Counted from the stretch's first letter, positions 3,709 through 36,791 are shown. The stretch is 38,322 nucleotides of DNA from Klebsiella phage ST16-OXA48phi5.4 (MK416015.1), one strand, 5' to 3'. The notes: a model not told the origin generated them from the sequence alone. A program made the numbers and translations.

Positions 3709-3723
3709 TCATCGGAGTACGCC

Positions 3724-3996: not shown

Positions 3997-4064
3997 TTAA
4001 CCCGCTTTAAAAATGACGGCATTCACTTTGCCGGGGATTCGTTTTGCCTTTTTCAGGAGGTTGC

Positions 4065-4852: not shown

Positions 4853-4860
4853 GGGCCGCC

Positions 4861-8640: not shown

Positions 8641-8930
8641 AATTATTATATATCAGCAACTCCGATGGGGGCGACTCAACAGAACATCTAATCTTTAACA
8701 GCCATATAGCAGTGATTGTAGAGCACGATCATGAAGAGTCTATCAATTTATTAGATCACAAAGATTAATGCCATGGCTAACTTTTCGCGAAGGCTAAAAA
8801 CCATAAAGAATATGAATTTTACTATATATTTATAAGTGATGTATATTAATAAGTCATAGCTTAACTCTAATTATTAGAGCAAAAGTAAATTTGCGCATCA
8901 TGTTTAATACATAACGCGCAAATCTGTTAA

Positions 8931-11992: not shown

Positions 11993-12539
11993 AAAATCTC
12001 CTTATTTTGAATATCAGAGCCCTAAACTATAAGTGCTTTATCATCAATCCTTTGACTTGGATTCTGATGAAATGTACTTATGGTTTCTTATCTATTATAT
12101 ATACATACGATGAATAATTATCAATAACATTTCATTATAAGTTTTGGTTGTTTCATGGATGCCTTGAATTTAGCTACCGTTGCTTTTGTCAATGGAATTT
12201 TTATGATTGTTTGATTTAAATCAATAAATTTAATGTAACTGTATGATTTTTATTGGGGTGGCGTGCTCATTTATTGGAAAGCTATGTTCTCCATAACATT
12301 AGTGCACGTTGTACTTCGATGATGTTTTTTTATTTGATATGGACTATCCATAACGAACGCTAATCAAATTGACTAAATTCTCCTAACCCAGCTATACAAA
12401 AGATTTAGATACTTCTACTAATTGACTGGGAAACATCCTAGTGAGTTAAATGTGAAAATTAGTGGTTGTTATTGAACTTATTTGCACAAAATTGCAAATG
12501 ATCTATTGATATCGATATTTCGTGTATTGCGCCACAGTA

Positions 12540-21201: not shown

Positions 21202-21833
21202 GCGATCGCATGTTCAGCGAGCTGGATCAAGTCTTTCAGGACATCCTCGACGGCGTCAGCCCGGCGGGGCGCACCCGTACCGCGCGCAAAATTGGTCTGG
21301 CACTGCGTCGCAGTCAGCAGCGCCGTATCGCGTCACAGAAAAACCCGGACGGCAGCGGCTATGCCGTGCGCCGCCGTAAGGTTTACCGCACCCAGCAGGG
21401 GATCAAGTTCTTCTGGAATAACGAGGTGCGGGCGCTGAAAAACTGGCGCGGCGGGCGCGGTAAATATGGCCGGACAATCACTGGTTTTGACGAGAAGCGC
21501 CGGGATATCCGCACCTTCTACCGGGCCGATATCGAGCGGTATCTGGAAATCAAAACGCAATCAGCTACGCATTCAGAGACAAAAAAAGCACCGATGTTTA
21601 CCCGCCTGCGCACCCTGCGTTTTATGAAGCTCAGGCCGGACGCGGGCGGCGTCACCGTAGGATTTGACGGCATCGCTGCGCGCATTGCCCGTATTCACCA
21701 GTACGGCCTCAAAGACGAGGTTGGTCCGGGCGCTTACGCGCAGTACCCGGCGCGTGAACTACTGGGCATAACTCCGGCAGACCTGAGCGCTACGGAAAAC
21801 GCCGTTATCAGCAGTCTGGGCGGTGCGTCATGA
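21198..21833 (+). CDS. S: tail completion protein gpS
   Basis: position between R and V. Confidence 0.8.
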   Translation: MSDRMFSELDQVFQDILDGVSPAGRTRTARKIGLALRRSQQRRIASQKNPDGSGYAVRRRKVYRTQQGIKFFWNNEVRALKNWRGGRGKYGRTITGFDEKRRDIRTFYRADIERYLEIKTQSATHSETKKAPMFTRLRTLRFMKLRPDAGGVTVGFDGIAARIARIHQYGLKDEVGPGAYAQYPARELLGITPADLSATENAVISSLGGAS

Positions 21834-22417
21834 ATGCTGAGCTGATGCGCCTGCTGGAAAACATTCTGCGCCTGGGCGTCGTGGAACAAATCAGCGCCGA
21901 CAAGAAAGCGGTGCGCGTTCGCTCCGGCAGGTTGCTGACCACCTGGATCCGCTGGAACGTCACCCGCGCAGGGGCATTCAGCATCTGGCTGCCGCCCTCG
22001 ATAGGGGAGCAGGTCTGGATCGGTTGTCCGGGCGGCAACCCTGAAAACGCGTTTGTGATTGGCTCTGCATACAGCGCAGATAATCCGCCAACGGGCAGCA
22101 ACCTGCTGGAAATCAGCATCACCGCACCGGATGGCGCGCGCCTGCATTACGACGCCGCCGCCGATGCCGGAGCACTGTCCGTGACCGGTATTAAAACCGC
22201 GCATATCCAGGCAGAGACCCGCGTCACGCTGGACACACCGGAGGTGGAATGCACGGAACACCTCAAAACGCGCACTTTCGAACTGACCCACGGCGGCACG
22301 ATGGCCGGTGATGTGTTCCATTCCGGCGGCGTGTTGCAGTCAAACGGGATCACCGTACATGAACATAAACACGGTGGCGTGCAGTCTGGCGGGAGTACCA
22401 CGGGAGGTCCGCAATGA
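21830..22417 (+). CDS. V: baseplate spike/assembly protein gpV
   Basis: 195 aa, position. Confidence 0.85.
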   Translation: MNAELMRLLENILRLGVVEQISADKKAVRVRSGRLLTTWIRWNVTRAGAFSIWLPPSIGEQVWIGCPGGNPENAFVIGSAYSADNPPTGSNLLEISITAPDGARLHYDAAADAGALSVTGIKTAHIQAETRVTLDTPEVECTEHLKTRTFELTHGGTMAGDVFHSGGVLQSNGITVHEHKHGGVQSGGSTTGGPQ

Positions 22418-22764
22418 CAGCCAGTTATACCGGGATGAACCCGGAGGGCACCGGCGCGCTGACCGATCACGATCAGCTCTGGCAGTCCGTGACAAAAATC
22501 CTCACCACGCCAACAGGCTCCCGTGTGATGCGCCGGGACTTTGGCTGTGTGGTACCTGATTTACTCGATGCGCCACAGAACACCGTCACCCGCATGCAAC
22601 TGATGGGCGCCACCGCTATTGCGCTGGCGCAGTGGGAGCCGCGGATCAGTCTGACCACCGTCAATGTGGTGTTTTCAGAAACAGGCGCGGTGACTGCTGA
22701 ACTGACCGGCACTATCACGGAAACCATGACAGAAACCAGTAACACCATCAGGCTAAGGAGCTAG
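22414..22764 (+). CDS. W: baseplate wedge protein gpW (gp25-like)
   Basis: 116 aa, position. Confidence 0.85.
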   Translation: MTASYTGMNPEGTGALTDHDQLWQSVTKILTTPTGSRVMRRDFGCVVPDLLDAPQNTVTRMQLMGATAIALAQWEPRISLTTVNVVFSETGAVTAELTGTITETMTETSNTIRLRS

Positions 22765-22765
22765 T

Positions 22766-23689
22766 GTGCAAACGTCCGTCGATTTATCTCAGATCCCACA
22801 GCCTGATATCGTCGAGGTGCCCGATTTTGAAACGGTGCTGGCTGATATCCGGGCGCTTATCGTGGCGGCCATGCCTGTGGAACTTCAGGCTTCTGTGTCT
22901 GCTGCGCTGCTGCTGGAATCTGAACCGATGGCGGCACTGGCCCAAGCCTTCACCTATCGCGAGATCCATCTGCTGCAACGTATCAATGAAGCCGTGCGCG
23001 CGGTGCTGCTTTCGAGCGCCTTGGGGGCGGATCTCGATCAGATCGCCGGGAATTTTGACACTGAACGCCTGCTGATTACCGAAGCCACCGACGAGGCGGA
23101 CGCAGTATATGAAAGCGACGAAGAGCTGCGCGGCCGCACGCTGCTCTCATGGGCTCGCCTTAGCACGGCGGGCGCCAGAAATGCCTATCACTATTTTGCG
23201 CGAGGTGCGGATGCGGATGTGCTCGATGTGCGCGCCTATGGCCCTGAAACCCATAACCAGGAAGGACGCGTTTTTCTCTACGTGCTGTCACGTACCGGAG
23301 ATGGGACTGCCCCGCAGGCGCTGCTTGATAAAGTCCTGTCAGCGGTAAACCCGGAAGATGTGCGTCCGATTACGGATTATGTGGCTGATTATGTCCGCTC
23401 CGCTGTGATTGTGAATTATCAGGTGGTTGCTGACATTTACGTCCCTTACGGCGTGGACACCGCCACGGTGCTGGAAAAAGCCACCGCAGCACTGAACGAA
23501 TACACCGCCTCTGTGCATCTCATCAACGCCACAGCTGCACGGTCGGGCATAGACGGGGCGCTGCATCAGGACGGCGTTGTTACCGTCGATTTGCATTCAC
23601 CGGCCGCCGACGTCGTTGCGACGATGGGCGAAGCGCCTCATTGCACCTCTGTGAAAATCAATCTTGTGGTGATGGACTATGACCGCTAA
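22766..23689 (+). CDS. J: baseplate wedge protein gpJ (GTG start after AGGAG)
   Basis: 307 aa, position. Confidence 0.85.
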   Translation: MQTSVDLSQIPQPDIVEVPDFETVLADIRALIVAAMPVELQASVSAALLLESEPMAALAQAFTYREIHLLQRINEAVRAVLLSSALGADLDQIAGNFDTERLLITEATDEADAVYESDEELRGRTLLSWARLSTAGARNAYHYFARGADADVLDVRAYGPETHNQEGRVFLYVLSRTGDGTAPQALLDKVLSAVNPEDVRPITDYVADYVRSAVIVNYQVVADIYVPYGVDTATVLEKATAALNEYTASVHLINATAARSGIDGALHQDGVVTVDLHSPAADVVATMGEAPHCTSVKINLVVMDYDR

Positions 23690-26600
23690 TTATCCCGCCA
23701 GCATTCTGCCACCCAACGCCACCGCCGTGGAGCGGGCCATAGACAGGGCCAGCGCCGCCGCACTGGAGAGGTTGCCGGTATATCTGATCCGTTGGGTTAA
23801 AGATCCGGACAGTTGCCCGCTGGCGCTGCTGCCGTGGCTGGCGTGGGAATATCAGGTTGATACCTGGAATATTAACTGGTCAGAACAAAAGAAACGCGAT
23901 GCGATCAAGCGCGCCCACTACATCCACCGCCATCGTGGTACAGTCGCCGCCGTCCGTCATGCCCTGGTGGACAGTCCTTTCGGGACGGATATTGTTGAAT
24001 GGTTCAATCAGAACCCGAAAGGGGATCCGTATACCTTTCGCCTGAATGTGTATCAGAACGATTTGCCGGTGACGGAATACGACCAGCAGGATCTAAAACT
24101 GGCGGTGCTGCGCGCCAGGAATCTGCGCAGCTGGTTTTCCGTTCATGTATTTGGCCGACTTCATGGAACCTCGTATGCGGCCGGTTACATGTACGCCACG
24201 GAGAAAATCACGCCGCGCTTTGTCCCGTTGCAGGTGGTTTTATCCCGCTACGAGCTGAATCTGGCCCCCGGGGACGCGGAAACGGTCACGGTGACAATTC
24301 TCCCCGAATACGCGGAAGATAAAACCTTTACGGTAACTACATCGGATCAAACAATCGCGACCGCCCGGATAGTAAACGGCGATATTCTGGTTACGGGCAT
24401 GAAGCGAGGTACCTGTTCGGTCACCGTTACGACGACTAATGGCGTCAGTGCGGTGATCAGCATAAAAGTGGTCGCGGTAATGAAGTTCATTACCCGCATC
24501 GACAGTGCAACCAGGCCAATATTCTTTGCTCATATGGACGAGGGTTTCACGGTTGACTATGGCGACGGCATTGACAGCCGGGACTACCGTTTCGATCCCG
24601 CCAGTGAAGCTTCAGGTTGGGTTATTCCTACACGTGAATTAGTACAGGGAAAGGAATACACCATCACGGTTAAGAACACGGAAACCGCCTGTCTGCGCAG
24701 CCGTTTATCTAACTATTCTTCGAAACTGAACCCTGTTGTGGAATTGATTAGTGTTACAGGGGAAAGAGGTCATCTTTCAGGGTTCGCTTTGGATACCACC
24801 GGATTAATGGCTATTCGTCCCGGAGCATTTGACGATTTGCCAAACGTGAATAACTGCAAAAATATTTTTACCAACTGCTCGTCGCTTGCAGGTATTCCGG
24901 CATCGTTGTTTTCTCGCATGAAGATAGAGGATTTTTCAGACGCATTCAGAGGGTGTACATCGCTTACTGAGGTTCCATCGGGGCTATTTGCAAACCAGCC
25001 TGATGCGATCGACTTCTCATCGGTATTTGCAGGCTGCACCGGCCTGATCAGTATCGGCAATAATCTGTTCCACAGCTGTGTATCTGCGGTGAATTTCAGT
25101 TACGCGTTTGATGGTTGCTCAATGCTTGCAAATATCGGCACGGGAATATTTACAGGATGCGGTTCAGCAGGGACATTCTCTTATAGCTTCAGGGCGTGTA
25201 AAAATCTTCTTGTCTTGCCTGCTGATATGTTTGCGGATGTTCCGGGCGGCGCATTCACCGGCGTATTCCAGAATTGCATGGCACTGACGGCAATTCCCGC
25301 CAACCTGTTTAAAACATGTTCTGAAGCGAATCATTTTGGCGGTGCATTCTCTGGCTGTTCGCAGCTTCTTTCTGTTCCTGCCGGTCTGTTTGCAGGTCTG
25401 TCGAAAGTCACCTATTTCGGGACAGTCTTTTCTGGTTGCAGTTCGCTGAAAACGGTCGGCGCGGGTTTATTTGCCGGGTGCAGCCAGGCGCAGACATTCG
25501 CCTCTGCATTTTACAGCTGCCGCTCTCTTGAAACTGTAGCGAAAGATATTTTCAGCGGCTGCGTAGAGGTGACGACCTTTGCCAGTACGTTTTATGGGTG
25601 CAGCAGCCTGACGGCGCTCCCGTCTTTTACTGACTGCGCGAAAGTCACCACTTTCTCATACGCTTTTGCTAACTGTGGATCGCTCACGAAAATTGATGCA
25701 GATGCTTTTGCTGTTAAAGCGCTGGTCACGACATTCACATACGCTTTTGTAAACTGTACTTCGCTGGTTTCTGTGGAGGACGGTGCATTTCGGGGATGTA
25801 GCGCGTTAACCAGCTTGGGCTATACGTTTTCAGGTTGCCGCTCTCTGGTTTCTCTCGCGGGAGATATGTTTGCCGGTTGCGCCAAAGTGACAGCCGTCGA
25901 TTTCTTATTCGACAAGTGCTCCGCGCTGGTTGAACTGCCAAAAGAGCTATTCAGCGACATGGTGTCCTTGAAAGGCATGGGATCGACTTTCCGGGATTGT
26001 ACTGCACTCATCTCGCTACCATCCGGCCTGCTTGATGGTTGCATCAATCTCACTTCGTTAACGCTGACATTCTCGGGCTGCACCTCACTGGCGTTATTGC
26101 CTGGCGATTTGCTGAAAAACAACATTCTTCTGTCCGGCGCCGGATCGACGTTTTACGGTTGCACCTCACTGGTAAATATTCCGCCGACGCTGTTCGCGTC
26201 CTGCTCTCTTATTACCTCGTTTGGCGCCACGTTCCAGAATACCGGCGTGGAGGAAATACCGGAAAACCTGTTCAGCGGCAACCCGCTGGTGACCTCTTAC
26301 GGCCAGACTTTCAGGGGCTGTAAAAACCTGCGCTCAGTGCCAGCCGGTCTTTTTGCCGCCAGCATAAGTGCCACGGTATTCACGAATGTCTTTTCGGAAT
26401 GCAGTGCGCTGGAAGTCGTCGGGGCGGGATTACTCAACACCACGGCGGTAACGACGGTGGGTTATCTGTTTGACGGCTGCGCGTCATTACACAGCGACGT
26501 TAACACGATATTTAATCTTGCGAGTTACCCGGAGATTGTCACCACAACGGCAATATTCAGGAGCTGCGTATTACTCGCCGGCAAAGGCCTGGTATTTATG

Positions 26601-26705
26601 GGCAAAGTGCCGAACGTCACCGCGCACTATTACGCGTTTTATGCCTGTGCGGGCCTGGACGATTACGACGATTTACCCGGCAACTGGATAACGAACAAAC
26701 TATGA
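23679..26705 (+). CDS. I: baseplate protein gpI fused in-frame to a bacterial Ig-like (BIG2-type) domain and ~24 BspA-type leucine-rich repeats (1008 aa)
   Basis: first ~180 aa match P2 gpI (CP.ALLPWLAWEY.VD.W...KR.AI..A..IHRH.GT); residues ~195-265 Ig-like; residues ~395-950 tandem ~23-aa F..C..L..IP..LF..... repeats. Confidence 0.8.
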   Translation: MTANYPASILPPNATAVERAIDRASAAALERLPVYLIRWVKDPDSCPLALLPWLAWEYQVDTWNINWSEQKKRDAIKRAHYIHRHRGTVAAVRHALVDSPFGTDIVEWFNQNPKGDPYTFRLNVYQNDLPVTEYDQQDLKLAVLRARNLRSWFSVHVFGRLHGTSYAAGYMYATEKITPRFVPLQVVLSRYELNLAPGDAETVTVTILPEYAEDKTFTVTTSDQTIATARIVNGDILVTGMKRGTCSVTVTTTNGVSAVISIKVVAVMKFITRIDSATRPIFFAHMDEGFTVDYGDGIDSRDYRFDPASEASGWVIPTRELVQGKEYTITVKNTETACLRSRLSNYSSKLNPVVELISVTGERGHLSGFALDTTGLMAIRPGAFDDLPNVNNCKNIFTNCSSLAGIPASLFSRMKIEDFSDAFRGCTSLTEVPSGLFANQPDAIDFSSVFAGCTGLISIGNNLFHSCVSAVNFSYAFDGCSMLANIGTGIFTGCGSAGTFSYSFRACKNLLVLPADMFADVPGGAFTGVFQNCMALTAIPANLFKTCSEANHFGGAFSGCSQLLSVPAGLFAGLSKVTYFGTVFSGCSSLKTVGAGLFAGCSQAQTFASAFYSCRSLETVAKDIFSGCVEVTTFASTFYGCSSLTALPSFTDCAKVTTFSYAFANCGSLTKIDADAFAVKALVTTFTYAFVNCTSLVSVEDGAFRGCSALTSLGYTFSGCRSLVSLAGDMFAGCAKVTAVDFLFDKCSALVELPKELFSDMVSLKGMGSTFRDCTALISLPSGLLDGCINLTSLTLTFSGCTSLALLPGDLLKNNILLSGAGSTFYGCTSLVNIPPTLFASCSLITSFGATFQNTGVEEIPENLFSGNPLVTSYGQTFRGCKNLRSVPAGLFAASISATVFTNVFSECSALEVVGAGLLNTTAVTTVGYLFDGCASLHSDVNTIFNLASYPEIVTTTAIFRSCVLLAGKGLVFMGKVPNVTAHYYAFYACAGLDDYDDLPGNWITNKL

Positions 26706-26914
26706 AAACATTCAATCAATTAAAAAGCCTGATCGACTTTTGTCAGACCGATGCGTTTTTCCTGGAACACCTGAACCGACTTCAGATCGCTGGCGTGATT
26801 TATCTTGATGAAGGCGATATCGATGCTGACCACAAGACCGTGAGTGATGATTTTTATGATCGACTTGCCAGCGTGTACGGCATTGAGCCAGAAATAAAAA
26901 GTGAGGAGGCATAA
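26702..26914 (+). CDS. small acidic protein (70 aa), translationally coupled between gpI-LRR and gpH
   Basis: ATGA overlap with upstream stop and TAATG overlap with H start. Confidence 0.55.
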   Translation: MKTFNQLKSLIDFCQTDAFFLEHLNRLQIAGVIYLDEGDIDADHKTVSDDFYDRLASVYGIEPEIKSEEA

Positions 26915-28011
26915 TGGCCACGGGACTGACACTAACCACGGCGGGCGCCGCCGAAATCGAGGCCGCGTATCAGGCGGGGGAGGTTGTGCATATTACCTCC
27001 GTGCTGATCGGCGATGGTGGCGGCGTGACATTGCCGGCTGATCCCGATGAGCTGGCGGCGGTGACGGCGCTTTTTGGACAGTTTGGCCGTGAAACCTTTG
27101 ACTCTGATTCAAGCTATGAGGGGTTTATCAGCGGGCAGATCGTTATCAACTGCCAGGATTATCCGGGTAAAACGCTCAGAGAAGCGGGGCTGGTCAGCGC
27201 TAAGGGTACGCTCATCGCTTACGGCACATACCCGGCGACATACCTCCCGGCGCAATCGGATTCCATTATTAAAGAGATCATGCTGACGCTGGTGTTGACG
27301 CTGACGCACAGCTCAAACGTGCAGCTTGTTATCGATCCGGCGCTTGCCACACTCACGCAGGAAACAGGTGATAAACGCTATCTGCGGCGAGCACAAAATC
27401 TTTCTGATTTAAACGATCCCAAAGAGGCCAGGGATAATCTTGAACTGGGTAACTCAGCTACGCGGGACGTGGGCACCGAGACGGGAATGGTAGCTGCGGG
27501 GGATGACTCGCGCATAACCGGCGCACTTCAGAAAGAAAATAATCTTTCCGATCTGAGCGATACATCCGAAGCCCTGAAGGCGCTGGGACTCAACAGCGAC
27601 GGAGCGGCTTATAGGGCTATTGTTGACGCTATTTTTTACGTTGGGATCATCATTTCAGGTGAAAAAAGCCCAGCAGAGCGTTTCCCTTGGCAGACGTGGA
27701 CGGATTTAAGCGAAACCTTTGCTGATAGGGTTGTCAGGATTGGTTCTCAGTATGGTGTGACCGGCGGCAGCAACAAGGTGAAGCTTGAAGCCGATAATTT
27801 GCCTCCACACTGGCACCGTTCTGGTGATAGGTCTCCGGGAGCAACTTGGGATCCCAGTGCCACTCACGGAACAGATAACCAGAAAAGTGGTCCGCTAGCG
27901 CTCACTGAAGGAACCTACATCGATGCGGCAGGTCTGAAGGCGTCCGTAAACAAGGATTTTGATGTGACTAACGAATATACAACGTTGTGTATGTGGAAGC
28001 GAAAGGCATAA
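26914..28011 (+). CDS. H: tail fibre protein gpH (short form, 365 aa) with C-terminal tail-collar-like domain
   Basis: N-terminus TTAGAA...ITSVLIGDGGG matches conserved P2 gpH N-terminal domain; C-terminal LPPHWH ... TLCMWKRKA resembles tail-collar domain motif. Confidence 0.82.
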   Translation: MATGLTLTTAGAAEIEAAYQAGEVVHITSVLIGDGGGVTLPADPDELAAVTALFGQFGRETFDSDSSYEGFISGQIVINCQDYPGKTLREAGLVSAKGTLIAYGTYPATYLPAQSDSIIKEIMLTLVLTLTHSSNVQLVIDPALATLTQETGDKRYLRRAQNLSDLNDPKEARDNLELGNSATRDVGTETGMVAAGDDSRITGALQKENNLSDLSDTSEALKALGLNSDGAAYRAIVDAIFYVGIIISGEKSPAERFPWQTWTDLSETFADRVVRIGSQYGVTGGSNKVKLEADNLPPHWHRSGDRSPGATWDPSATHGTDNQKSGPLALTEGTYIDAAGLKASVNKDFDVTNEYTTLCMWKRKA

Positions 28012-28503
28012 AAAATGTGTGTTTGTTCAGAGTTGCTCCTTCATAAAATAAGAAATGAGTAGTGGTGGATATGAAAATCTAATAGCCTGTAAAGCGTATC
28101 CTCAATTATCCGTAGATGAACAATTATTCTTAAGGTGGCCTCGCTGGCTTTGATGCTGTGGTCAAAAGAACATAGATTGATGCTGAAGTTTGTTAAATGT
28201 GGAGAAGCTCACACGGCGTTTTTTAATCAATTTATTTAAACGCACAGATCTGGTGAAATACAGTTTTTAAGTTATGAAATGGCTTGATTTAAATTTTGAT
28301 AAATGAGTTCTTTCTGATTGGGTTTAATAATCATTGATTAAATTAATAAGCATTTCAACAGTAATGGCTGAAGTCTCAAAAATGGATTTCCAAGATTTTT
28401 GTGAAAGGAAGGTTTAGATGCTTACATTGTCATTTTAAACCTGAGTGGTTTCTAAATATTAAGGTGGGTTAAAGCATTTTAATGAATTTTAGATGTATTA
28501 AGA

Positions 28504-28544
28504 GGGAGGTGAATTAAAAGATGCTGTTTATACATATATTTTGA
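28504..28544 (+). other. 7-codon mini-ORF (MLFIHIF) with strong SD GGGAGGTG, upstream of the DUF262 gene
   Basis: read directly; possible leader peptide, speculative. Confidence 0.2.
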
Positions 28545-28558
28545 AATGGATTTTTTTG

Positions 28559-28598
28559 TTGTTGTATGGTATCATGTACTGTAGTATGACATAATTTC
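28559..28598 (+). promoter_or_regulatory. candidate sigma70 promoter for DUF262 cassette (TTGTTG ... TAGTAT / CATAAT)
   Basis: hexamer-like elements 20-50 bp upstream of ATG 28611 in AT-rich leader. Confidence 0.3.
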
Positions 28599-28610
28599 AG
28601 AGGAATTAAA

Positions 28611-29834
28611 ATGGAAGAAAAACATTCGTTAGAAGAAAATGCCATAGCTGTTTCTGAAAGTGACGATCTCGAGATTATCGAGTCTAATCAAGATATAATA
28701 AGTGATGATCCTGTTACAAAGGAAGACATTGAAAATCTTGTAATTTATTCGCGGGATTGGACTATTGAAACAATAATTAGCCAAATAGAATCTGGGAATA
28801 TTGATCTCAACCCTGCTTTTCAAAGGAGAAATGTCTGGGAAAATGATAAGCGTTCTAAGCTAATTGAGTCATTTATTGTAGGGTATCCTGTTCCAGAAGT
28901 TGTTTTGGCTGAAATACCAGGTAAAAAGAAACAATATGTTGTTATTGATGGTAAGCAACGCCTTCTTGCCATTCATGGTTTTTTTAAACCTGAAAATAAA
29001 TATTGGAAAGGTAAGGCTGAGTTAAAAGGATTAACAATTCGTAAAGATTTGGAAGGTGTTTCATTTGATAGATTAGATGGAGATGACCTTAGGCTGTTGA
29101 ATAACTCAGATCTAAGATGCACCATTCTATCAGGATATCAAACAACAGCTGTACTTTACGATGTATTTTATCGTTTAAATACTGGTTCTGTACCTTTGTC
29201 GATGCAAGAACTAAGAAATTCATTACATAAAGGAGATTTTTCTGTTTTCATAACTGAGAAGACTAACTCTGAAATCCCACTGCATGCTATTATGTCATTG
29301 CCAGGTCCAGATAAAAGATTTAAAGATATTGAAGTAATGCTTAAGTTTTTAGCCCTTAACTTTAATAAAGACAAGTATAATGGTAATTTAAAAGTTTTCC
29401 TAGACGGGTTTACAGAATATGCTAATCAATCTTGGTCTTCTAACAATAAACTTATAACCAATGCTTGTGATGAGTTTGATCAGGCGTGTTTATTATTGAT
29501 TGATATTTTTAACACTCCAAAACTAGTCGGTAGAAAATGGGTTCCTATCAAAGATAATTGGGAGTCGAGATTTAATCGATCTGTTTTCGAAGTTTTAGTT
29601 CAGTACGCATTTAATATAATCAAAGATGGCAATTCTGCATTATTTTCCGGTGATAATGAAAAAAATGATTTTATAGAGTGTATAAAACAAGCATTCACAG
29701 GGCAAGAATTTGCAGCCTCTGTATCGACTACGACAAAAACAGTTGAACAACATTCGATAAGATTTAATGTTTTATTTGGCATTTTAAATAGCAAATTTGG
29801 TTTGCATTATACTCTACCTCAGACAATTCAATAA
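28611..29834 (+). CDS. DUF262-domain protein (ParB/Srx-like NTPase domain as in GmrS/SspE/BrxU type IV restriction modules), 407 aa; cargo in P2 Z/fun hotspot
   Basis: signature NPAFQRRNVW ... VVIDGKQRLLAI (DUF262 FQR..W and DGQQR motifs); ~33% GC. Confidence 0.75.
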   Translation: MEEKHSLEENAIAVSESDDLEIIESNQDIISDDPVTKEDIENLVIYSRDWTIETIISQIESGNIDLNPAFQRRNVWENDKRSKLIESFIVGYPVPEVVLAEIPGKKKQYVVIDGKQRLLAIHGFFKPENKYWKGKAELKGLTIRKDLEGVSFDRLDGDDLRLLNNSDLRCTILSGYQTTAVLYDVFYRLNTGSVPLSMQELRNSLHKGDFSVFITEKTNSEIPLHAIMSLPGPDKRFKDIEVMLKFLALNFNKDKYNGNLKVFLDGFTEYANQSWSSNNKLITNACDEFDQACLLLIDIFNTPKLVGRKWVPIKDNWESRFNRSVFEVLVQYAFNIIKDGNSALFSGDNEKNDFIECIKQAFTGQEFAASVSTTTKTVEQHSIRFNVLFGILNSKFGLHYTLPQTIQ

Positions 29835-29851
29835 TAAAATGAGAGGGCGAA

Positions 29852-30514
29852 ATGGACTATTCAGTTGATATAATGAAAGCCTTCGATACTCTGGTTAGAG
29901 TAAATACGAATCTTTACAATAGATATATATTACCACATATAGGCGTTGTAGACTCAACTGATGAGGTGTTTTCCTTAGACGTTAAATCATATTTAATATT
30001 GTTGCATGCAGCCATTGAGGACTACATAGAAGGAATCAGTGTCTTCACTAGTAATGCAGCTTGCGAGCTATTCAAAAATGAAGGCAAAATAACCTTGCCA
30101 CTTATGTTTTTGTTTGCAAAAAGTAAATCATTCAAAGACAGAGTATCCGATAAAAAATTATCAGAAGAATTACATGACTCTCCGCGAGATTTTATGGTTA
30201 GTTCGTTGGGGGATATTAACGCAAATGCAGTTGCAGGTGCGATTGATAATAATGGAATAAATGTCAGGTATCTCAATAATCTTTTGCAACATTGTGGCAT
30301 TAATTTTGATGTGTCTGAAAATGATTTTATTAGTTGGAAAAGTTTAGCTGACTATAGAGGTGATTATGCTCATGCAGTGGTATTTAATCATGGCAAAAAG
30401 CCTAAGGCGACAAAGCTTATATCACCAGAGGATGCTAGAGATCTAGGTAATGATTGCATCAGATTTTCGGAAAAGATAAGAGATGAAGCATTAAGTAGTT
30501 TAGGTTTAAATTAG
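29852..30514 (+). CDS. 220-aa partner protein with HEPN-like Rx4H motif (YRGDYAHAV) near C-terminus
   Basis: follows DUF262 gene by 17 bp, same strand, same low GC; R-x4-H motif; assignment is inference. Confidence 0.6.
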   Translation: MDYSVDIMKAFDTLVRVNTNLYNRYILPHIGVVDSTDEVFSLDVKSYLILLHAAIEDYIEGISVFTSNAACELFKNEGKITLPLMFLFAKSKSFKDRVSDKKLSEELHDSPRDFMVSSLGDINANAVAGAIDNNGINVRYLNNLLQHCGINFDVSENDFISWKSLADYRGDYAHAVVFNHGKKPKATKLISPEDARDLGNDCIRFSEKIRDEALSSLGLN

Positions 30515-30523
30515 AGGCTTATA

Positions 30524-30552
30524 AGGCGAAAGAATTAGTTTCGCCTTTTTTC
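30524..30552 (+). terminator. rho-independent terminator after cargo cassette (AAGGCGAAA-loop-TTTCGCCTT + T5)
   Basis: 9-bp perfect stem followed by TTTTTT. Confidence 0.75.
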
Positions 30553-30977
30553 ATTCTTTCAGTGTAATAGTGGTGAAATATATATTTTAAAATGTTTGGT
30601 TTTTTTAACAACCAGCTTACTCTTGCTATTCGTGGTCGCTACCAATTTGGCAGAGTTCTTCGAAGTAAATATATAGACTATGCATGATTTGTCTTTTGGT
30701 TGCTGGATATATCTCACTTCATTTGTAAGTTTTTTTTGCTAACCTTAATTATGGGGTGGTGTGATTTTTGTTGACCGATGTGTAAAAATGTTTGTGTTTT
30801 TAGAAGCTGTGGTAATTGTAAGTATTCAGTGTTTGCAGATTATTGGATTCTATCTATTTGGAGTGGGAATAATCTCTATGGTCAGGTCTGAGCTTATGTG
30901 AAATACGTTCAGTAATGACTGTTTTTGTCTATGTCTAGTACCATAATAATTATTTTCTGCATTGAATATGAGGTCAC

Positions 30978-31451
30978 CTAGCGTATTTTAGTTACATCTG
31001 ATACCGTTTTGGCTCCATCCTTCAGTATTGCCATCATGTCGCTGACGGAAGAACTATGCAACCTCTCCCTGATATCCTCATCAACCCGCTGCAACGAGAG
31101 TGTGAACTCTATTTTTTTAGCTTTACCGTAACGATCCAACTCCTGATGCGTCTCCTGTAAACCCGTGATGACATACATCCCGTAAATCGAGCCAACCCCA
31201 TCAATCAACGGCCAGGCAAGCCCGGTGTAAGCCATTGTCGAGACCGCACCCAAAGACAGGTTGTCTCCAGTGATTTCAGGGTACAGCAGCCCACCCAACG
31301 TCAACTGGTTCTCGCCGGCGCCAACGTACTGCCATTTTGCGCTCCGGCCCACCCGGTCATTCTTAACGTGCCGCCAGTTACGTGACAGCTGCAATTGCTG
31401 ATAGGGCAGCGTCCTGAGTTCAAATACAAAGAGACCGAATACCATCATCAT
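30978..31451 (-). CDS. U: tail protein gpU
   Basis: MMMVFGLFVF...WQYVGAGENQLTLGGLLYPEITG matches P2 gpU. Confidence 0.9.
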   Translation of the reverse strand: MMMVFGLFVFELRTLPYQQLQLSRNWRHVKNDRVGRSAKWQYVGAGENQLTLGGLLYPEITGDNLSLGAVSTMAYTGLAWPLIDGVGSIYGMYVITGLQETHQELDRYGKAKKIEFTLSLQRVDEDIRERLHSSSVSDMMAILKDGAKTVSDVTKIR

Positions 31452-31466
31452 AGTTATTACTCCTAA

Positions 31467-34442
31467 TTAATCGTTATCCCGGAACGAACCCCGGGCAGCG
31501 CGTTGCTTTTTATCAATTTCCGCGCGGACAGCCTCGCCAACAAGTCGCGCCAGTTCGCGCGGATTGTTGCTCTGAATGCCGTGCAGATGGACGTGAATAT
31601 CACCGGGAAAACTACCACCTGAAGCTGTAGCCGCCGTGTGGGTGCTTTGATTTCGGCGTACCGGTTGCCATGCCTGCGTCTGTTTTATCGATGGCTCGCC
31701 AGCGGCAATAACCGGGCGAGCGCTGACAGACTGGCGGACAAGCTTCGACTCCTGCCATTCACCACGTACTGCAAGGGCTGGAGGGAGATTTTTAAATACA
31801 ATGTCACCCGGCCCGATACGTTTGCGTTTTTCCTCATCTAAAAGGCCTTTGGTGTTATCCGCGATTTGGCCCAGCCGCCGCTCTGTTCCAGAGTTGCCCC
31901 CGAGCACATTGGGCGGCGGGGCGCTGCCTTTGCTTGCAGGCTTTTCAGATGACCATTGCCACTCCCTTTTAACCATGCGCCCGGATTTTTCATCCCATTC
32001 CCACATAACCGGAATAGCCCTGAGTCTGGCCGCTTCCAACCTGGCTCTTTCAATGCCATCGGGGATGAGATCGAGCTTCTCCAGTAACCAGCCGACGCCT
32101 TCCATTAACTTCTGAAGCGGCCAAAGCAGAACGCTAAGTGCGGTCCCCAGGACTTCGCCAAAAGTCTGCCCGGCGCTGGCGCATTTGTTTAGCGCCTCGC
32201 GACTCTCCTCAACGGGCGTTAATACTTTTTTAAACCAGTTCCAGACGTTTTTGACGCCATCCCCAATGACCCCGAAAACGGGCGCCAGCCGGGAAAATGC
32301 GTTATAAACTGGCGCTAACCCCTGGATGACGCCTGTAAAAAAACCGCTAAAGAAGGCCTTAATTGGTCCCCAGTATTTCCAGATCAGTACTCCCGCAGCT
32401 ACAAACGCAGCACCCACTAAACCGATTGGGCTCAAGAGCATTGATAATCCGCCGCCCAGTGCAGCAATACCGCCTTTTACAATGCCGAAGAGAGCAGGGA
32501 TCCCGGTTAGCCGCAATGCCAGCCCGCCAATGCTTTTTGACAGGGCGCTGATAGCAGTCCCCAGAGAGGTAAAGGCACCAAGTAACGCACCGCGCAGGGG
32601 TACCATCATTCTGGTTAATACGCCGATGCGTCCTGCCAGGCCGCTGAGTAAAGCACGCCATCCGCTAATTTTTACCAGTGAGCTACCGCCCGCAGCACTC
32701 AACATGCGGAACGCTGATACCGTACCTCCGATTCCGCTCCCGCCGGACAGCAGCGCAAACCCCAGTCTGAGCTTCGCCAGCGGACCTATCAGCAGACCAG
32801 CAGCTAATGACATACCGCCAATTACTGCGGTCAGTGCCAGTACAGTCCCGCCGGCGAGTAACAACGTTTGTGAAAGTCTGGGGTTTTCTTCTACCCAGCT
32901 TTGAACAGTGCCAATAACCCGGCTAAGCCCCTGTGTCAGTCTGCGCAATGGGCCGTCCACTGTCTCAGCTACAGAAATGCGGAACGCCTCCCACGCGCTG
33001 TCCAGCTCCTTCAAATCGCCGCCAAGGTTGTCTTTTTTCTTGTTAGCGACGGCGAAGGCCTCCTGATTTTTATGCGCTTCAGCAATTTGTCCATAGAGTG
33101 ACTGGAGGTAGCCATCACCTGCGCCGTTGACCAAAGACTGGAGACTCGTAAAACCCTCTTCTCCGGCGATATCTTTGAAAAATGAAACCTGATCCACCTC
33201 GCCAAAGCGGGAAACGCGTTTTTGTAGATCGAGAAGAATATCGAACGGACGTCGCATTTTTCCGCTCGCGTCGGCAGTTTCCACTCCCAGCTCTTTGAGT
33301 GCCTTTTTGGCTGCCGTAGTAGGGGAGGCCAGGCGGGAGAGGGAGCGACGCATTGCAGTACCGGCCTCGCTACCGCGAATACCCACGCGCGCCAGCGTGC
33401 CGGTCATCGCTGCGGCTTCTTCCAGGCTAATCCCTAGTCCCGCGGCTACCGGTCCGACAACTTTCATTGTCTCGCCGAGGCTGCTAAGCGTGGTGTTGGT
33501 ACGGGTAAATGTACCTGTCAGCACATCGCTGACGCGGTCCATTTCCCCGGCATCGAGGGCGAACTGTGAAAGAATATTTGAGCCGATGTCTGCCGTTTCA
33601 CCCAATTCCATACTGCCCGCTAGTGCCATATTGAGTACGCCGGGCAGTGCGGCACGGATAGCATCTGGCGTGAAGCCCGCCATTGCCAGAAAGGCCTGGC
33701 CGCTGGCGGCGTGACGTGTGGTGAAGGCGGTTTCAGCACCGAGTTTTTTTGCCTGAGTGCGCAAGGCGGCCAGCTGCGAATCGCTTTTATCGAGTCGCGT
33801 CAGCGCCTGGACGTTTGACATTTCCTCATCAAAACCAACCGCAGGCGACAGGAAGCGTCCGGCGCCATACCCGGTAGCGGTTGCTGTACCTAATGCTATG
33901 GCACCACCAGAGCGCAACTTCCCGGCCATCTGCTGTGCACCCTCGTAACGTTTACGAGCTTGAGTGACCGCAGCAAGTTGCCGTTTTTCCCGTTCAAGGG
34001 ATTGGTTGTATTGTTCTGTGCGGCGTATCGCGTTACCGATGGTGGCGCTACTACCGGAAAGCATGACGCCATGCTGGCGCAGGGCTGATGCACTCTCACG
34101 GAGGCGGGCCACTTCCGTCACGCGTTTTGCGGTCAACCGATCAAGCCGCTCACCCAATCGGGACATCAGTATTTGCTGTTTTTCCGTCAGAGTTCCGTTT
34201 TTACGTTGCGCTTCTGACAAGCCATCAAAGCGGGCACGGGCACGTGAGATGGAACGGTCGGTTTTGCCGACGGCCGCGGTCATTCGCTGAAAAGTGGCAC
34301 TGCTCTTATCGAGTCCTTTCAGGGTGGATTGTGTTTTTCTGAGGGAGTCGGATAGGCCGCCCGCACTCTGGCGGGCAGCATTAACGGGGCGGGTAAATCT
34401 GTTGATCGCGCTGAAAGCAACGCGGATATCAAGGCTCTTCAT
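31467..34442 (-). CDS. T: tail tape-measure protein gpT (ATG at 34442; ORF track alternative GTG 34454)
   Basis: ~990 aa, Ala/Gly-rich helical, position between E' and U. Confidence 0.88.
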   Translation of the reverse strand: MKSLDIRVAFSAINRFTRPVNAARQSAGGLSDSLRKTQSTLKGLDKSSATFQRMTAAVGKTDRSISRARARFDGLSEAQRKNGTLTEKQQILMSRLGERLDRLTAKRVTEVARLRESASALRQHGVMLSGSSATIGNAIRRTEQYNQSLEREKRQLAAVTQARKRYEGAQQMAGKLRSGGAIALGTATATGYGAGRFLSPAVGFDEEMSNVQALTRLDKSDSQLAALRTQAKKLGAETAFTTRHAASGQAFLAMAGFTPDAIRAALPGVLNMALAGSMELGETADIGSNILSQFALDAGEMDRVSDVLTGTFTRTNTTLSSLGETMKVVGPVAAGLGISLEEAAAMTGTLARVGIRGSEAGTAMRRSLSRLASPTTAAKKALKELGVETADASGKMRRPFDILLDLQKRVSRFGEVDQVSFFKDIAGEEGFTSLQSLVNGAGDGYLQSLYGQIAEAHKNQEAFAVANKKKDNLGGDLKELDSAWEAFRISVAETVDGPLRRLTQGLSRVIGTVQSWVEENPRLSQTLLLAGGTVLALTAVIGGMSLAAGLLIGPLAKLRLGFALLSGGSGIGGTVSAFRMLSAAGGSSLVKISGWRALLSGLAGRIGVLTRMMVPLRGALLGAFTSLGTAISALSKSIGGLALRLTGIPALFGIVKGGIAALGGGLSMLLSPIGLVGAAFVAAGVLIWKYWGPIKAFFSGFFTGVIQGLAPVYNAFSRLAPVFGVIGDGVKNVWNWFKKVLTPVEESREALNKCASAGQTFGEVLGTALSVLLWPLQKLMEGVGWLLEKLDLIPDGIERARLEAARLRAIPVMWEWDEKSGRMVKREWQWSSEKPASKGSAPPPNVLGGNSGTERRLGQIADNTKGLLDEEKRKRIGPGDIVFKNLPPALAVRGEWQESKLVRQSVSARPVIAAGEPSIKQTQAWQPVRRNQSTHTAATASGGSFPGDIHVHLHGIQSNNPRELARLVGEAVRAEIDKKQRAARGSFRDND

Positions 34443-34904
34443 CACTGGCACCACTTCGAAGCGCCGCCCGCTTGCGCCAGGCTATCACCTCGCCAAGATC
34501 CATGCCGAAAACTTCAGAGGGCGGCCAGTTAAAAATAACGGCAATATCAGCAACCAGATCGTCTATCTGGTCAAACGCAACGGTGATTACTCGCTCTCCG
34601 TCTCCGCCACGTTCGACGCTCCAGGCTCCGGCGGATTCAAGAAAGGGACCAGAAGCTCTGCCAGCCCGATAAAGTCCAGGGTGTGCATTTCGTTGATTTC
34701 TTTTTGTGTCAGCGCAGGCGCGGTGACTCGCGTCAACAGCGTGGCAATTGAGTCTGCATCCATATTGGCAACGCGGATAAGATTCAGGCCGCGCAACGAT
34801 CCGGCCTGACTGATGGCGCCAGTGATTTCCACCTGACCGATCTCACTGTCTTTACGAACTACCGGCTGCATCAGCGTGAACAGGTTTTTAGTTTTTTTAG
34901 CCAT
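34429..34904 (-). CDS. E: tail assembly chaperones gpE (34587-34904) and gpE+E' produced by -1 frameshift at slippery heptamer C CCT TTC (minus-strand, 34641-34647); E' ends 34429 overlapping T start
   Basis: canonical X XXY YYZ heptamer in E frame; -1 frame stays open ~72 codons and terminates just inside T start, as in P2 E/E'. Confidence 0.7.
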
Positions 34905-34949
34905 GTTTAAAATCTCCGGGCGGCATCGTTGCCACCCTCTTAAAGGTTA

Positions 34950-35465
34950 TCAATTGCCCATGCCAAGGGCAGAGGTGATGCGGTCCGGGAACATGTTCTG
35001 ACCGTTCTTTTTGTAGATGAAATTCAGCAGATCGATTTCGATAATGGGCTGATCATCTATGGAGAATTTGTAGTAGGTGGATTTAAAGGTGTAGCTTTCC
35101 TCGGTGTCTTCTCCCTGTTTTGAATCTCCACCGTCGAGTTCAGTAAATCGCCCGCGCAGCTCCACCTCGACAAGCTGGCTTTCGCCATCAGTGAAATATT
35201 CACCCGCAAAGCGCAGCCGCGTGCCGTCAATTTCTGCTCCGTATTCGAGAAACAGAGCCTTAATGACGCCGCCAAAAACAATGGTGGAATCCAGCGCGCC
35301 AGCCTCAAGGCCGAGATCAACACCGACCGCACCCAGCATGCCACCGCCCTGATAGTCCTCTACCTTTCGTGACAGTTTGGGGCGAGTGAAAGAGGTCACT
35401 TTTCCCAGATAGTTGTCGCCGTTAACAAAGCAGCTAAAAAGCCGCAGTTTGTGAGGAATAGCCAT
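34950..35465 (-). CDS. FII: tail tube protein gpFII
   Basis: 171 aa equal to P2 FII, position. Confidence 0.9.
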   Translation of the reverse strand: MAIPHKLRLFSCFVNGDNYLGKVTSFTRPKLSRKVEDYQGGGMLGAVGVDLGLEAGALDSTIVFGGVIKALFLEYGAEIDGTRLRFAGEYFTDGESQLVEVELRGRFTELDGGDSKQGEDTEESYTFKSTYYKFSIDDQPIIEIDLLNFIYKKNGQNMFPDRITSALGMGN

Positions 35466-36637
35466 TATTCACCCCCGAGCGACGCGAACGCCGGTTCGTA
35501 AAAATCATCAGTAAAGGTCTGGTATAGCGTCAGATCTTCAAGCGGTGGGACCGGGCTGTAGCTATAGCGCACAATCAGTTTTCCCTGGCGCAAATCCGTG
35601 GTGCCGTTATCCAGCGTGTCATACCAGCAGTCAGCGCCGATAAGCTGGCCGGCAGTGACTTTTTTGCTGAGAGCAGAGCGGATGCCGCTTACCACATCTT
35701 TCACGTTGGCCGGAGTGAGCGGGCTGTCAACAGAGGTAAATTGCGCCTCCGCAATACTGTCCGCCAGGATCTGCGCGGTACGGGTAAACACCTCAAAAGT
35801 GTAGGTTTCGGTGTCCGTGGTGCGGTTACCCCAGAAGCGGAAACCGTCACGCTTGATAAGCGTCGTGATTTCGTTGTTGTTCAGCTCGTTAGCGTCGCTG
35901 TCTTCTGCCTGCAATGCCCAGAACACATCTTTCGAAATACCCAGAACGTTATTCACCACAACATTCGACAGCGATTTGTGCCAGCCCTGGCTGTTATCGA
36001 TAGCGGCGCGCAGGCCGCAGGCGTAAGCCGGGGCAGGAAACGTTTCGTTATCATCCGTCAGGGGGTTGTAAGCGATGAAGTCCGGCCAGATCAGCATCAG
36101 CTCGCGGTAAGCGAAGGTTTTGCGATAAGCAATAGCCTCCGCCATGGTCGCGCAGCCGTTACAACCGGCATAAACAAAAGCCCGAAGATTCTGGGCAATC
36201 ACGCAAAGCTGTGACGTTACCTCCTCGGTGTCGTAGTCCGGTACCGCCAGGATGCGCGGACGATAGCCGGTTTTGGCTTCCGCCGTCAGCAGGGCATACA
36301 TTCCCGTATAGCTGTCGCCATCTGTTCCGCCAATAACGGCCTGGGACTGGCTGGCACCGTTACCGGAAGCCTCTTTCACCCGGACAATTACAACGCGCGA
36401 GCTGCACTGATCGGAAATGGCTTTGAGAGCTTTGTAAAGTGACCCGGTTTTACCTGCCTTGCCGAGGACGTTACGCACCCGAGTCAGCAGAACCGGCGTA
36501 TTGAGCGGGAAGGTTTCCGGATCGGCGTCATCAGCAACCGCGACAATACCGATCACGCTGGAATCAATGTCATTGATTGCCTGCTGTAGGTCGGTATTTT
36601 CGCGAGAGCGGACGCCGTGAAAACGAGTTTCAGACAT
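35465..36637 (-). CDS. FI: tail sheath protein gpFI (ATG 36637, MSETRFHGV...; ORF track extends spuriously to 36946)
   Basis: multiple conserved blocks matching P2 FI (RELM.IWPDF, GWHK.LSNV, RDGFRFWGNRT, VPPLE.LT). Confidence 0.92.
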   Translation of the reverse strand: MSETRFHGVRSRENTDLQQAINDIDSSVIGIVAVADDADPETFPLNTPVLLTRVRNVLGKAGKTGSLYKALKAISDQCSSRVVIVRVKEASGNGASQSQAVIGGTDGDSYTGMYALLTAEAKTGYRPRILAVPDYDTEEVTSQLCVIAQNLRAFVYAGCNGCATMAEAIAYRKTFAYRELMLIWPDFIAYNPLTDDNETFPAPAYACGLRAAIDNSQGWHKSLSNVVVNNVLGISKDVFWALQAEDSDANELNNNEITTLIKRDGFRFWGNRTTDTETYTFEVFTRTAQILADSIAEAQFTSVDSPLTPANVKDVVSGIRSALSKKVTAGQLIGADCWYDTLDNGTTDLRQGKLIVRYSYSPVPPLEDLTLYQTFTDDFYEPAFASLGGE

Positions 36638-36713
36638 AAGTTCACCATCATGTTGCTCTTTGAGTTCAGGGCCATATTCAACGTTAAGTCTGCTGGCGTC
36701 GCCTGGTTGCCGG

Positions 36714-36738
36714 TCTGCCCGTTCGCTGACAACAAAAA
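36714..36738 (+). promoter_or_regulatory. second Ogr-type late promoter site TCT-N12-ACA + ACAAAAA in FI/D divergent region
   Basis: TCTGCCCGTTCGCTGACAACAAAAA, 19/24 identical to site at 15682. Confidence 0.55.
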
Positions 36739-36791
36739 GGGATTCAGCCCCGCGCGCGGGCATGGAATCATCAGCAAAAAACGGGGGAGTT

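Follow-up and report, generated by a model that had tools for sequence, protein, structure and literature searches.

The 38,322-nucleotide (nt) stretch of Klebsiella phage ST16-OXA48phi5.4 (MK416015.1), referred to below as the window, holds a P2-like prophage in whose late tail operon the gene for the baseplate protein gpI encodes 1008 amino acids (aa). An earlier note on this DNA had proposed that gpI is fused here to an immunoglobulin (Ig)-like domain and to an array of BspA-class leucine-rich repeats (LRRs). Judging by profile matches and by the alignment to P2 gpI this fusion is genuine, and the coordinates given for the open reading frame (ORF) are exact: it starts with ATG and runs through 1008 codons in a single intact frame. 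The fusion gene sits between the Baseplate_J gene gpJ and the fibre gene gpH, an order that is the same in P2 (Table 1). Its start is overlapped over 11 nt by the 3' end of gpJ, and downstream lies a small ORF that is coupled on both sides, overlapping the LRR gene at ATGA and gpH at TAATG, and that has a GAGGAGG Shine-Dalgarno sequence.

Table 1. Features of the window, with the fusion gene and its parts listed first and the remaining genes after them
Feature	Position	Strand	Basis or remark
Fusion gene, gpI anchor-Big_2-beta-sandwich-LRR array-cap, 1008 aa	23679-26705	+	ORF; phrog_9915 full length, 2022 bits
Anchor, gpI/Tri2-type triplex subunit, aa 1-180	23679-24218	+	Tail_P2_I, TIGR01634, P2 gpI alignment
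Big_2 Ig-like domain, aa 181-270, linking anchor to exchangeable body	24219-24488	+	Pfam Big_2 at aa 189-258, E 1.6e-8
Beta-sandwich, aa 271-390, first part of exchangeable body	24489-24848	+	AlphaFold2 strands, pLDDT >90
BspA/PARCEL-class LRR array, aa 391-955, 31 cysteines	24849-26543	+	LRR_5, DUF285, LRR_8, TIGR02167
C-terminal cap, aa 956-1008 (...LDDYDDLPGNW...), and stop	26544-26705	+	Helices aa 970-976 and 1001-1004 (AlphaFold2)
Acidic 70-aa protein, putative partner of the LRR body	26702-26914	+	phrog_11426
gpH short fibre, 365 aa, N-terminal attachment domain and variable tip	26914-28011	+	Phage_tail_fib E 1e-15; phrog_4618
gpJ, Baseplate_J, 307 aa	22766-23689	+	Pfam Baseplate_J E 6e-20; phrog_6
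gpV-W-J, late tail genes of the prophage	21830-23689	+	
Integrase of the P2-like prophage	1279-2313	-	Window gene calls
gpA of the P2-like prophage	6059-8110		Portal and terminase-to-capsid genes also in the window
UvrD-like helicase, 756 aa	8931-11201	-	Weak GajB-type matches only (1.9e-12)
263-aa protein	11201-11992	-	No family match
GmrSD_N/DUF262 protein	28611-29834		PADLOC NsnA 1.5e-61
HEPN RiboL-PSP protein	29852-30514		Island after gpH

Architecture and abundance of the gpI-LRR protein

The N-terminus of the protein is the gpI anchor (MTANYPASILPPNATAVERAID...), and among the features of exported proteins a hydrophobic leader was looked for at this end and not found. Each of the three profiles by which the earlier note had proposed to check the fusion found its match, namely Tail_P2_I at aa 10-150 (E 3.6e-38, 131 bits against a cut-off of 20.6), Big_2 (E 1.6e-8) and LRR_5 (E 1.7e-10). 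Additionally, the TIGR01634 tail_P2_I equivalog scores 113.8 bits against a cut-off of 30.05, and residues 4-172 of the 176-aa P2 gpI are collinear with residues 7-178 of the window protein (33% identity, E 3e-30). Since P2 gpI aligns end to end, the extension of ~830 residues begins where P2 gpI stops, and the 1008-aa protein departs from the size norm of P2-type gpI (~176 aa, a single domain). When a profile of the family was searched against the PDB it retrieved 6u5b, 'Tri2 PA0619' of the pyocin R2 baseplate (E 5.6e-23), and Foldseek led to the same chain.

In the phage E217, the baseplate 'nut' consists of six triplexes, each built from a pair of gp44 chains (Baseplate_J type) and a single gp45, which the next gene encodes; the fibre gp46 docks on gp45, which was proposed to relay a pulling signal to the triplex (PMC10329688). 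Homology and gene order together would make residues 1-180 of the window protein the single-copy triplex subunit that partners two gpJ. In that case each virion would have six copies of the extension, each of them a monomer, at the baseplate rim beside the site of gpH attachment.

In the AlphaFold2 model, which was built from a 36-sequence alignment and has a mean predicted local distance difference test (pLDDT) score of 87.8, residues 180-1000 are modelled at pLDDT >90 and the anchor at <60-80, a low value that fits a chain whose folding takes place within a heterotrimer. In both the profile search and Foldseek, Big_2 comes out similar to the C-terminal Ig domain of lambda gpV (2l04). It follows the anchor lineage, with 84-100% identity among P2-type anchors and ~40% to the HP1 type. 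The beta-sandwich that comes next (aa 271-390) and the cap that ends the protein (aa 956-1008) are additional to the parts named in the earlier note; a Pfam scan assigned the beta-sandwich to no family. The cap is kept even in P0203, a short 546-aa variant with an anchor 87% identical and the same architecture with few repeats only, as well as in P0032, a relative with a different anchor described below.

The array comprises ~21 units of 26-27 aa with the consensus xxFxxxFxGCxSLxxxPxxLFxxCxxx, repeat phasing having replaced the initial estimate of ~24 repeats of ~23 aa. F7, C10 and L13 are invariant in all 15 units of exact length, and the x positions vary among homologs. The array is matched by LRR_5 (BspA; 41.3 bits against a cut-off of 27.7), by DUF285 (E 9.5e-8, 32.3 bits against 25) and by TIGR02167, the profile of the PARCEL 26-residue repeat (53 bits against 30). 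The repeat solenoid is modelled at pLDDT 95-98, and its Foldseek matches are the Toll-like receptors TLR3/8, Toll5A and the BspA-like 4gt6 (E 3.9e-6), with template-modelling scores that are low because the query has several domains; the profile search against the PDB gave 4gt6, 4fs7 and the TpLRR structure 6mlx. In the DNA the repeats recur every 81 nt, and Tandem Repeats Finder and a repeat finder returned only weak direct repeats, mostly at multiples of 81 nt. Recent tandem duplication or slippage-prone repeats were considered and rejected, the DNA repeats being weak and old. A search of the coding DNA for dyad symmetry, the feature by which PARCELs are defined, yielded one weak inverted pair (26 nt, 73% complementary) and no strong symmetry.

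The fusion is standard rather than rare. In a large protein database, the 99%-identity cluster named 'phage tail protein I [Klebsiella pneumoniae]' has 1551 member sequences, and full-length relatives down to ~36% identity occur in Klebsiella species, E. coli, Salmonella, E. albertii and Trabulsiella. The E. coli relatives of the 1008-aa protein reach only ~38-40% protein identity; a megablast search of E. coli complete genomes found no DNA-level match to the LRR gene. Twelve GenBank records (Klebsiella phage Kp48xx-1; Peduoviridae, Reipivirus) carry the full ORF at 98% identity. A set of 65 IMG/VR contigs was collected by means of the 70-aa ORF; the frame spans ~1008-1023 codons in 62 of them, is cut by the contig end in two, which leaves 63 complete copies, and in one, L023, is broken by a 1-nt frameshift. 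This sole disrupted copy (2977-6004 of IMG/VR contig 2808606811_000003) is otherwise 97.7% identical in DNA to the window, and its indel is either a sequencing error or a recent inactivation. A frameshift or stop error at about 24200-24300, which the earlier note had wished to see excluded, is excluded by the recurrence of the intact frame in the 1551-member cluster, in the 12 phage records and in all but one of the 63 complete IMG/VR loci; within the reach of sequence data, sequencing error or frameshift is rejected as the origin of the long ORF. Judging by the 62 intact copies, the frame is maintained by selection.

Two abundant 71-aa variants of the small ORF served to sample seven chromosomal loci, which present the order gpJ, gpI-LRR (1009 aa), small ORF, gpH (365 aa), variable cargo and inverted gpU; in one of them, L012, no fibre gene was called and the open frame has 413 codons. 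The gpI-LRR fusion is the standard design of a very abundant group of Klebsiella/Raoultella prophages. Its product is presumably a true structural component of a P2-like (Reipivirus-type) Klebsiella prophage and would be incorporated into the virion.

PHROGs already holds the family as phrog_9915, with its function unannotated, and the paper behind the Kp48xx-1 records does not mention the gene. No published description of the gpI-LRR fusion was found in the literature searched, part of which was swamped by papers on GPI anchors. According to a 2020 paper, PARCEL domains had not previously been described in phages (PMC7765460). The suggestion that such a fusion is undescribed for P2-like phages therefore stands as far as that literature goes and has to be narrowed in that the family, very common, is present in PHROGs and in NCBI annotation: the sequence family is known and named, and it is the architecture and its exchange behaviour that appear undescribed. 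PARCEL/BspA-type arrays were also found in many other phage proteomes. One of them, the 890-aa phapecoctavirus 'tail protein' gp118 of Escherichia phage Mt1B1_P17 (L082, 4895-7567), has ~32% identity to the LRR array and is the last gene of a cluster made up of colanic-acid degradation, tail fibre and tail protein.

Exchange of the body and its linkage to a small ORF

The window was compared segment by segment, as the reference, with the related prophages L008-L015. Identity and synonymous divergence (dS) amount to 96-98% and 0.08-0.37 for gpJ, 97-99% and 0.15-0.44 for the anchor, and 91-94% and 0.21-0.46 for Big_2. The corresponding values are 60-62% with dS >1 for the beta-sandwich, 45-56% with saturated dS for the N-terminal half of the array, 43-72% with dS >1 or saturated for its C-terminal half, 49-79% with dS 0.5-1.0 or saturated for the cap, and 59-73% with dS ~1 or more for the small ORF. 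They return to 91-95% and 0.16-0.45 in the first 150 aa of gpH, and the gpH tip stands at 72-87% and 0.7-1.6. Among 62 IMG/VR loci, anchors are 97-100% identical; the bodies found behind such anchors range from 43 to 100%. Across L008-L015 and the IMG/VR loci, identity from the beta-sandwich onward falls to 56-63% with dS >1, and the boundaries of identity are sharp, at ~aa 270 and at the start of gpH. The jump in synonymous divergence shows that the body was replaced by recombination with old alleles; taken alone, it is no proof of rapid evolution in place.

The bodies of 72 complete loci fall into 7 classes at 90% identity and the gpH tips into 19, and 30 combinations of body and tip occur. 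Body identity and gpH-tip identity are uncorrelated (Spearman 0.015), a coefficient that, like those given below for the small ORF, is descriptive only, since pairs of loci are not independent and the small ORF adjoins the body. The N-terminus of gpH is 88-99% conserved across loci, and a 413-aa version of gpH is present in six of them.

The same body is found on other anchors. P0011, a 1011-aa Klebsiella protein, is 95% identical to the window protein in the array, 96% in the cap and 87% in the beta-sandwich. BLAST does not match its first 180 residues to the window protein; they belong to phrog_1228, with a Tail_P2_I score of only 28.9 bits. The setting of the gene is an HP1-like tail cluster (L002/L003), in which Baseplate_J precedes it and a 68-aa homolog of the small ORF and a fibre come next. 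Likewise, P0032 (1071 aa) has a DUF2612/Phage_Wedge1 N-terminus, in an E217-like cluster (L004), followed by a body that is 41% identical overall and 45% in the beta-sandwich; next come a 76-aa homolog of the small ORF (49% identity) and a fibre without detectable similarity to the gpH of the window. The relatives in E. coli, whose arrays are ~31-35% identical, have no small ORF, and carry a conventional fibre with a Caudo_TAP chaperone. Bodies and small ORF being shared between different anchors, the mobile unit is the beta-sandwich, LRR array and cap together with the small ORF, with its 5' junction at ~aa 270. As judged from these alignments, the cassette is seated on three or four different anchors, namely P2-like, HP1-like, E217-like and that of Serratia.

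The earlier note had also raised whether gpI is fused or separate in related prophages, and the comparison gives a divided answer: fused in Klebsiella, separate ORFs in Serratia. In three independent Serratia assemblies (L085, 1253-4536; L086, 2410-5677; L087, 2410-5689), anchor (262-263 aa) and LRR body (810-816 aa) are separate genes in different frames, with a spacer of 44-45 nt and a conserved TGGAGG ribosome-binding site and ATG. The Serratia bodies share 40-41% identity with aa 170-1000 of the window protein. The break falls inside Big_2: the anchor proteins end with positions 1-49 of the 79 of the Big_2 profile, and the bodies start with 'MADGQIIITGG.KFG.TNVTVT', which aligns with the second half of the Big_2 domain of the window. 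The simplest reading of these alignments is gene fission, after which the Ig fold would be re-formed from two chains and the LRR body would dock non-covalently.

Extended members recur in the gpI family. Among its top 150 representatives (50% identity clusters), most measure 165-280 aa and about one in six reaches at least 350 aa. The extended gpI proteins that were scanned carry Laminin_G_3, Kelch, Big_12 with LamG, or Big_2 with a region assigned to no family; the C-termini of P0258, P0272 and P0288 are examples of Laminin_G_3 (ConA-like lectin), Kelch repeats, and Big_12 with LamG. The C-terminus of gpI seems, from these domain assignments, to be a general mounting point for binding domains.

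The product of the small ORF is acidic (pI 4.3, net charge about -9), and the ORF is translationally coupled between the LRR gene and H; to this extent the earlier description of it holds, and the chaperone role suggested alongside remains conjecture. It has 146 homologs, nearly all from Klebsiella/Raoultella and all annotated as hypothetical. In the IMG/VR contigs it lies directly 3' of the LRR-encoding frame in 65 of 65 loci; P2-, HP1- and E217-like clusters, like Serratia, have a homolog of it after the LRR gene, with identities of 78% and 49% across lineages. Among the 72 loci its identity rises and falls with that of the body (rho 0.67) but not with that of the gpH tip (rho 0.08). The possibility that it is instead a partner of the gpH tip was rejected, given this low rho and given that in the E217-like cluster the fibre is unrelated although body and small ORF are shared. 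By these comparisons, the genetic link of the small ORF is with the LRR body, not with the fibre. AlphaFold2 models the 70-aa protein as a small alpha/beta domain (pLDDT 77.5), for which Foldseek gave no PDB match with E <5. Electrostatic complementarity between the small protein and the LRRs was also rejected, both being acidic (pI 4.3 and 4.8).

The sequence data settle the integrity, domain architecture, position and abundance of the gene, the exchange of the cassette and its linkage to the small ORF.

Possible functions of the baseplate arm

The reading that we favour, and hold to be rather probable, is that the protein is a baseplate-mounted, six-fold, monomeric LRR adhesin acting as a second host-binding device, exchanged independently of the fibre and served by a small partner; it presumes virion incorporation, six-fold monomeric display, ligand binding and a chaperone role. 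The Ig domain, beta-sandwich, ~21-turn solenoid and cap would project as six monomeric arms from the baseplate rim and would bind a variable structure of the bacterial surface, as a second recognition device swapped independently of the gpH tip. The arms would be mounted on the very subunit that relays fibre binding to baseplate opening, and the 70-aa acidic protein would be a dedicated folding or capping partner of the LRR body. We lean to a second host-binding device because of the identity and position of the anchor, the TLR/BspA-like fold, the cassette exchange and the several anchors, and because other gpI extensions carry binding modules, the phapecoctavirus LRR homolog closes a fibre/depolymerase cluster and selection has kept the frame open. 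The small protein is taken as a dedicated partner of the body because its ORF is coupled, is conserved across lineages, is present beside an unrelated fibre and co-varies with the body. A role in chaperoning or capping is suggested by resemblance to fibre-chaperone genes in placement and co-inheritance, which is its sole basis. The earlier note had likewise envisaged an extra receptor-binding device beside a shortened gpH. Position and evolutionary behaviour fit that proposal, while receptor binding and association with the virion are what it supposes. The shortening itself is plain, gpH having 365 aa against 669 in P2, with P2 homology limited to the N-terminal ~160 aa (aa 25-161). In the interval after gpH (28011-28611), no assembly gene of the gpG/Caudo_TAP type was found. 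The gpH tip has the motif '...NLPPHWH...', reminiscent of collar-type fibre tips, and no Pfam match.

Several points weigh against the favoured reading. That residues 181-1008 are present in virions is something we infer, and in the phage collection the gene is confined to the 12 'UNVERIFIED' prophage records, which are unannotated in-silico predictions; no propagated phage there has it. There is no known ligand for any phage PARCEL/BspA protein. The anchor is poorly modelled, hence the geometry of the arm is drawn from homologs. The variable residues are scattered over all x positions of the repeat, not confined to one demonstrable face. A dN/dS test for positive selection on the LRRs was uninformative, dS being saturated so that the ratio is not estimable there, and the pattern is one of exchange of old alleles. 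Body length is nearly fixed, with frames of 1008-1011 codons in 70 of 72 loci despite identities of 43-100%, and an architectural role fits this as well. As for the partner, the 70-aa protein matches no chaperone family of Pfam, NCBIfam or PADLOC and no fold, phrog_11426 being its only family, and its co-variation with the body is confounded by physical adjacency.

A bolder version can be put forward only tentatively. In it, a monomeric PARCEL/BspA solenoid, carried six-fold on the triplex subunit, would be a receptor-binding device of an uncharacterised class, in which binding of the ligand would act directly on the subunit that triggers contraction. It would be a main determinant of host range in one of the commonest groups of Klebsiella prophages, with its own new 70-aa chaperone and with attachment that is covalent in Klebsiella and E. 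coli or through a split Ig domain in Serratia.

Less likely is that the arm is an architectural strut, comparable to the extra domains of T4 gp7, which positions, retracts or stabilises the gpH fibres or the wedges and binds no receptor. A strut would suit an arm fused to the fibre-docking subunit, a gpH that is unusually short and lacks its own chaperone gene, a body whose length is nearly invariant across alleles only 43-55% identical, and a C-terminal cap conserved even in the short variant. Against a strut, the body assorts freely with gpH tips (rho 0.015) while the gpH N-terminus stays 88-99% conserved, and the same body is present on unrelated anchors and beside unrelated fibres. Moreover, length does vary outside the Klebsiella group, from 546 to 1071 aa, and the other gpI extensions are lectin-like or Kelch binding modules.

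It is quite improbable that the arm serves adherence to the animal host or the environment, binding mucus or other non-bacterial material and so concentrating virions near Klebsiella. Binding of this kind has been proposed for Ig-like decorations on capsids, and the resemblance of Big_2 to the Ig domain of lambda gpV points the same way, as do the closest cellular relatives of the body, which are BspA-family surface proteins of Bacteroidetes (P0038-P0046, ~34-35% identity), and the general occurrence of BspA/PARCEL proteins on the surface of host-associated microbes. At least seven allele classes within one bacterial genus, exchange of the body among three tail lineages that infect Klebsiella and Serratia, placement on the triggering subunit and tight coupling to the fibre operon are nevertheless more typical of the recognition of a bacterial receptor.

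An artefact or a decaying gene, that is, a sequencing or assembly fusion of gpI to a downstream gene or a relic in a defective prophage, has next to no standing, because the frameshift of L023 and the separate anchor and body ORFs of Serratia are outweighed by the same architecture in the 1551-member cluster, in numerous diverged alleles and in all but one of the 63 complete IMG/VR copies, by repeats that every one keep their core residues in a gene translationally coupled within an intact late operon, and by the conserved ribosome-binding site and start codon that the Serratia split has of its own. A role in defence was rejected as well, PADLOC having no match among its defence families for the LRR protein or for the product of the 70-aa ORF.

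Temperate phages of Klebsiella drive gene flow in a priority pathogen, and prediction of their host range at present considers depolymerase spikes and fibres. Should the LRR arm bind a receptor, as favoured here, a class of specificity determinants would have been overlooked in thousands of genomes, where it is labelled 'tail protein I'. LRR scaffolds are engineerable, and the junction at ~aa 270 could offer a practical handle for retargeting P2-like phages or tailocins. More generally, the C-terminus of gpI-type proteins seems to be a recurrent mounting point, for LRR, lectin-like and Kelch modules alike, and the Serratia split inside the Ig domain suggests a mechanism of non-covalent docking.

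Neighbouring islands and comparison with known systems

Between gpH and an inverted gpU, the window has an island of low guanine-cytosine (GC) content (28011-30978; GC 0.32) that contains the GmrSD_N/DUF262 and HEPN RiboL-PSP genes of Table 1. In related prophages the same slot is occupied by GAPS4-like genes, HD with an ion channel, a 1287-aa TPR protein, SIR2 with nSTAND, AAA_15/21 or DUF6650, and this differing cargo marks it as a defence hotspot equivalent to the Z/fun position of P2. A second low-GC island (8000-12500; GC 0.31-0.35) follows gpA, and its pair of genes for the UvrD-like and 263-aa proteins may be an uncharacterised two-gene defence cargo. The genes for gpU, the tape measure, the tube (FII) and the sheath (FI) lie at 30978-36946 on the minus strand, opposite to V-W-J-I-H, and converge on the cargo island. 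In P2 the tail genes follow H-G on the same strand; the inversion is also present in L007-L015.

The nearest parallels to the gpI-LRR protein are P2 gpI, PA0619 and E217 gp45. The N-terminal 180 residues belong to the same family, as indicated by the hidden Markov models, the P2 alignment and the Tri2 match, and the J-I-H order is shared. The window protein is longer by ~830 residues (Ig domain, beta-sandwich, 21 LRRs and cap) than P2 gpI (176 aa) and PA0619 (177 aa), whereas E217 gp45, with 504 aa, is of a different (Wedge1-type) fold family and has no LRRs.

Enlargement of a triplex subunit has a precedent in T4, whose baseplate has a triplex of the (gp6)2-gp7 type in which gp7 is enlarged by extra peripheral domains. 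The gpI-LRR protein is likewise a triplex subunit enlarged by peripheral domains, but its extension showed no relation to the domains of gp7 in sequence or in fold, and is a repeat-protein binding scaffold swapped as a cassette.

In its evolutionary behaviour the locus resembles modular fibres and tailspikes, with which it shares a conserved anchor, a hypervariable distal part, sharp recombination boundaries, exchange between lineages and a small downstream gene that is transferred along. Here, however, the carrier is a triplex subunit that by homology would be monomeric in each triplex, the distal part is an LRR solenoid instead of a beta-helix or fibre tip, and the small partner shows no relationship to Caudo_TAP or to other known chaperones. 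PARCEL/BspA arrays are also present in the phapecoctavirus LRR 'tail proteins' and in BspA-like proteins of jumbo phages (Bacillus phage G gp353, Klebsiella N1M2, Eowyn, Vibrio pir03 ORF200/287), but in none of these is the array joined to a gpI anchor.

Microbes that live in association with a host carry BspA/PARCEL proteins on their surface. With those of bacteria and protists the window protein has in common the 26-27 aa period, the hydrophobic/Cys core, the variable hydrophilic positions and a 4gt6/4fs7-like solenoid; it differs from them in having no signal peptide, lipobox or wall anchor, its anchor being a phage baseplate domain and its gene part of a late tail operon. Mycoplasma surface lipoproteins are where the PARCEL repeat was defined (PMC2996958), and the window LRR protein resembles PARCELs, as described there, in its horizontal spread with mobile elements (PMC2996958).

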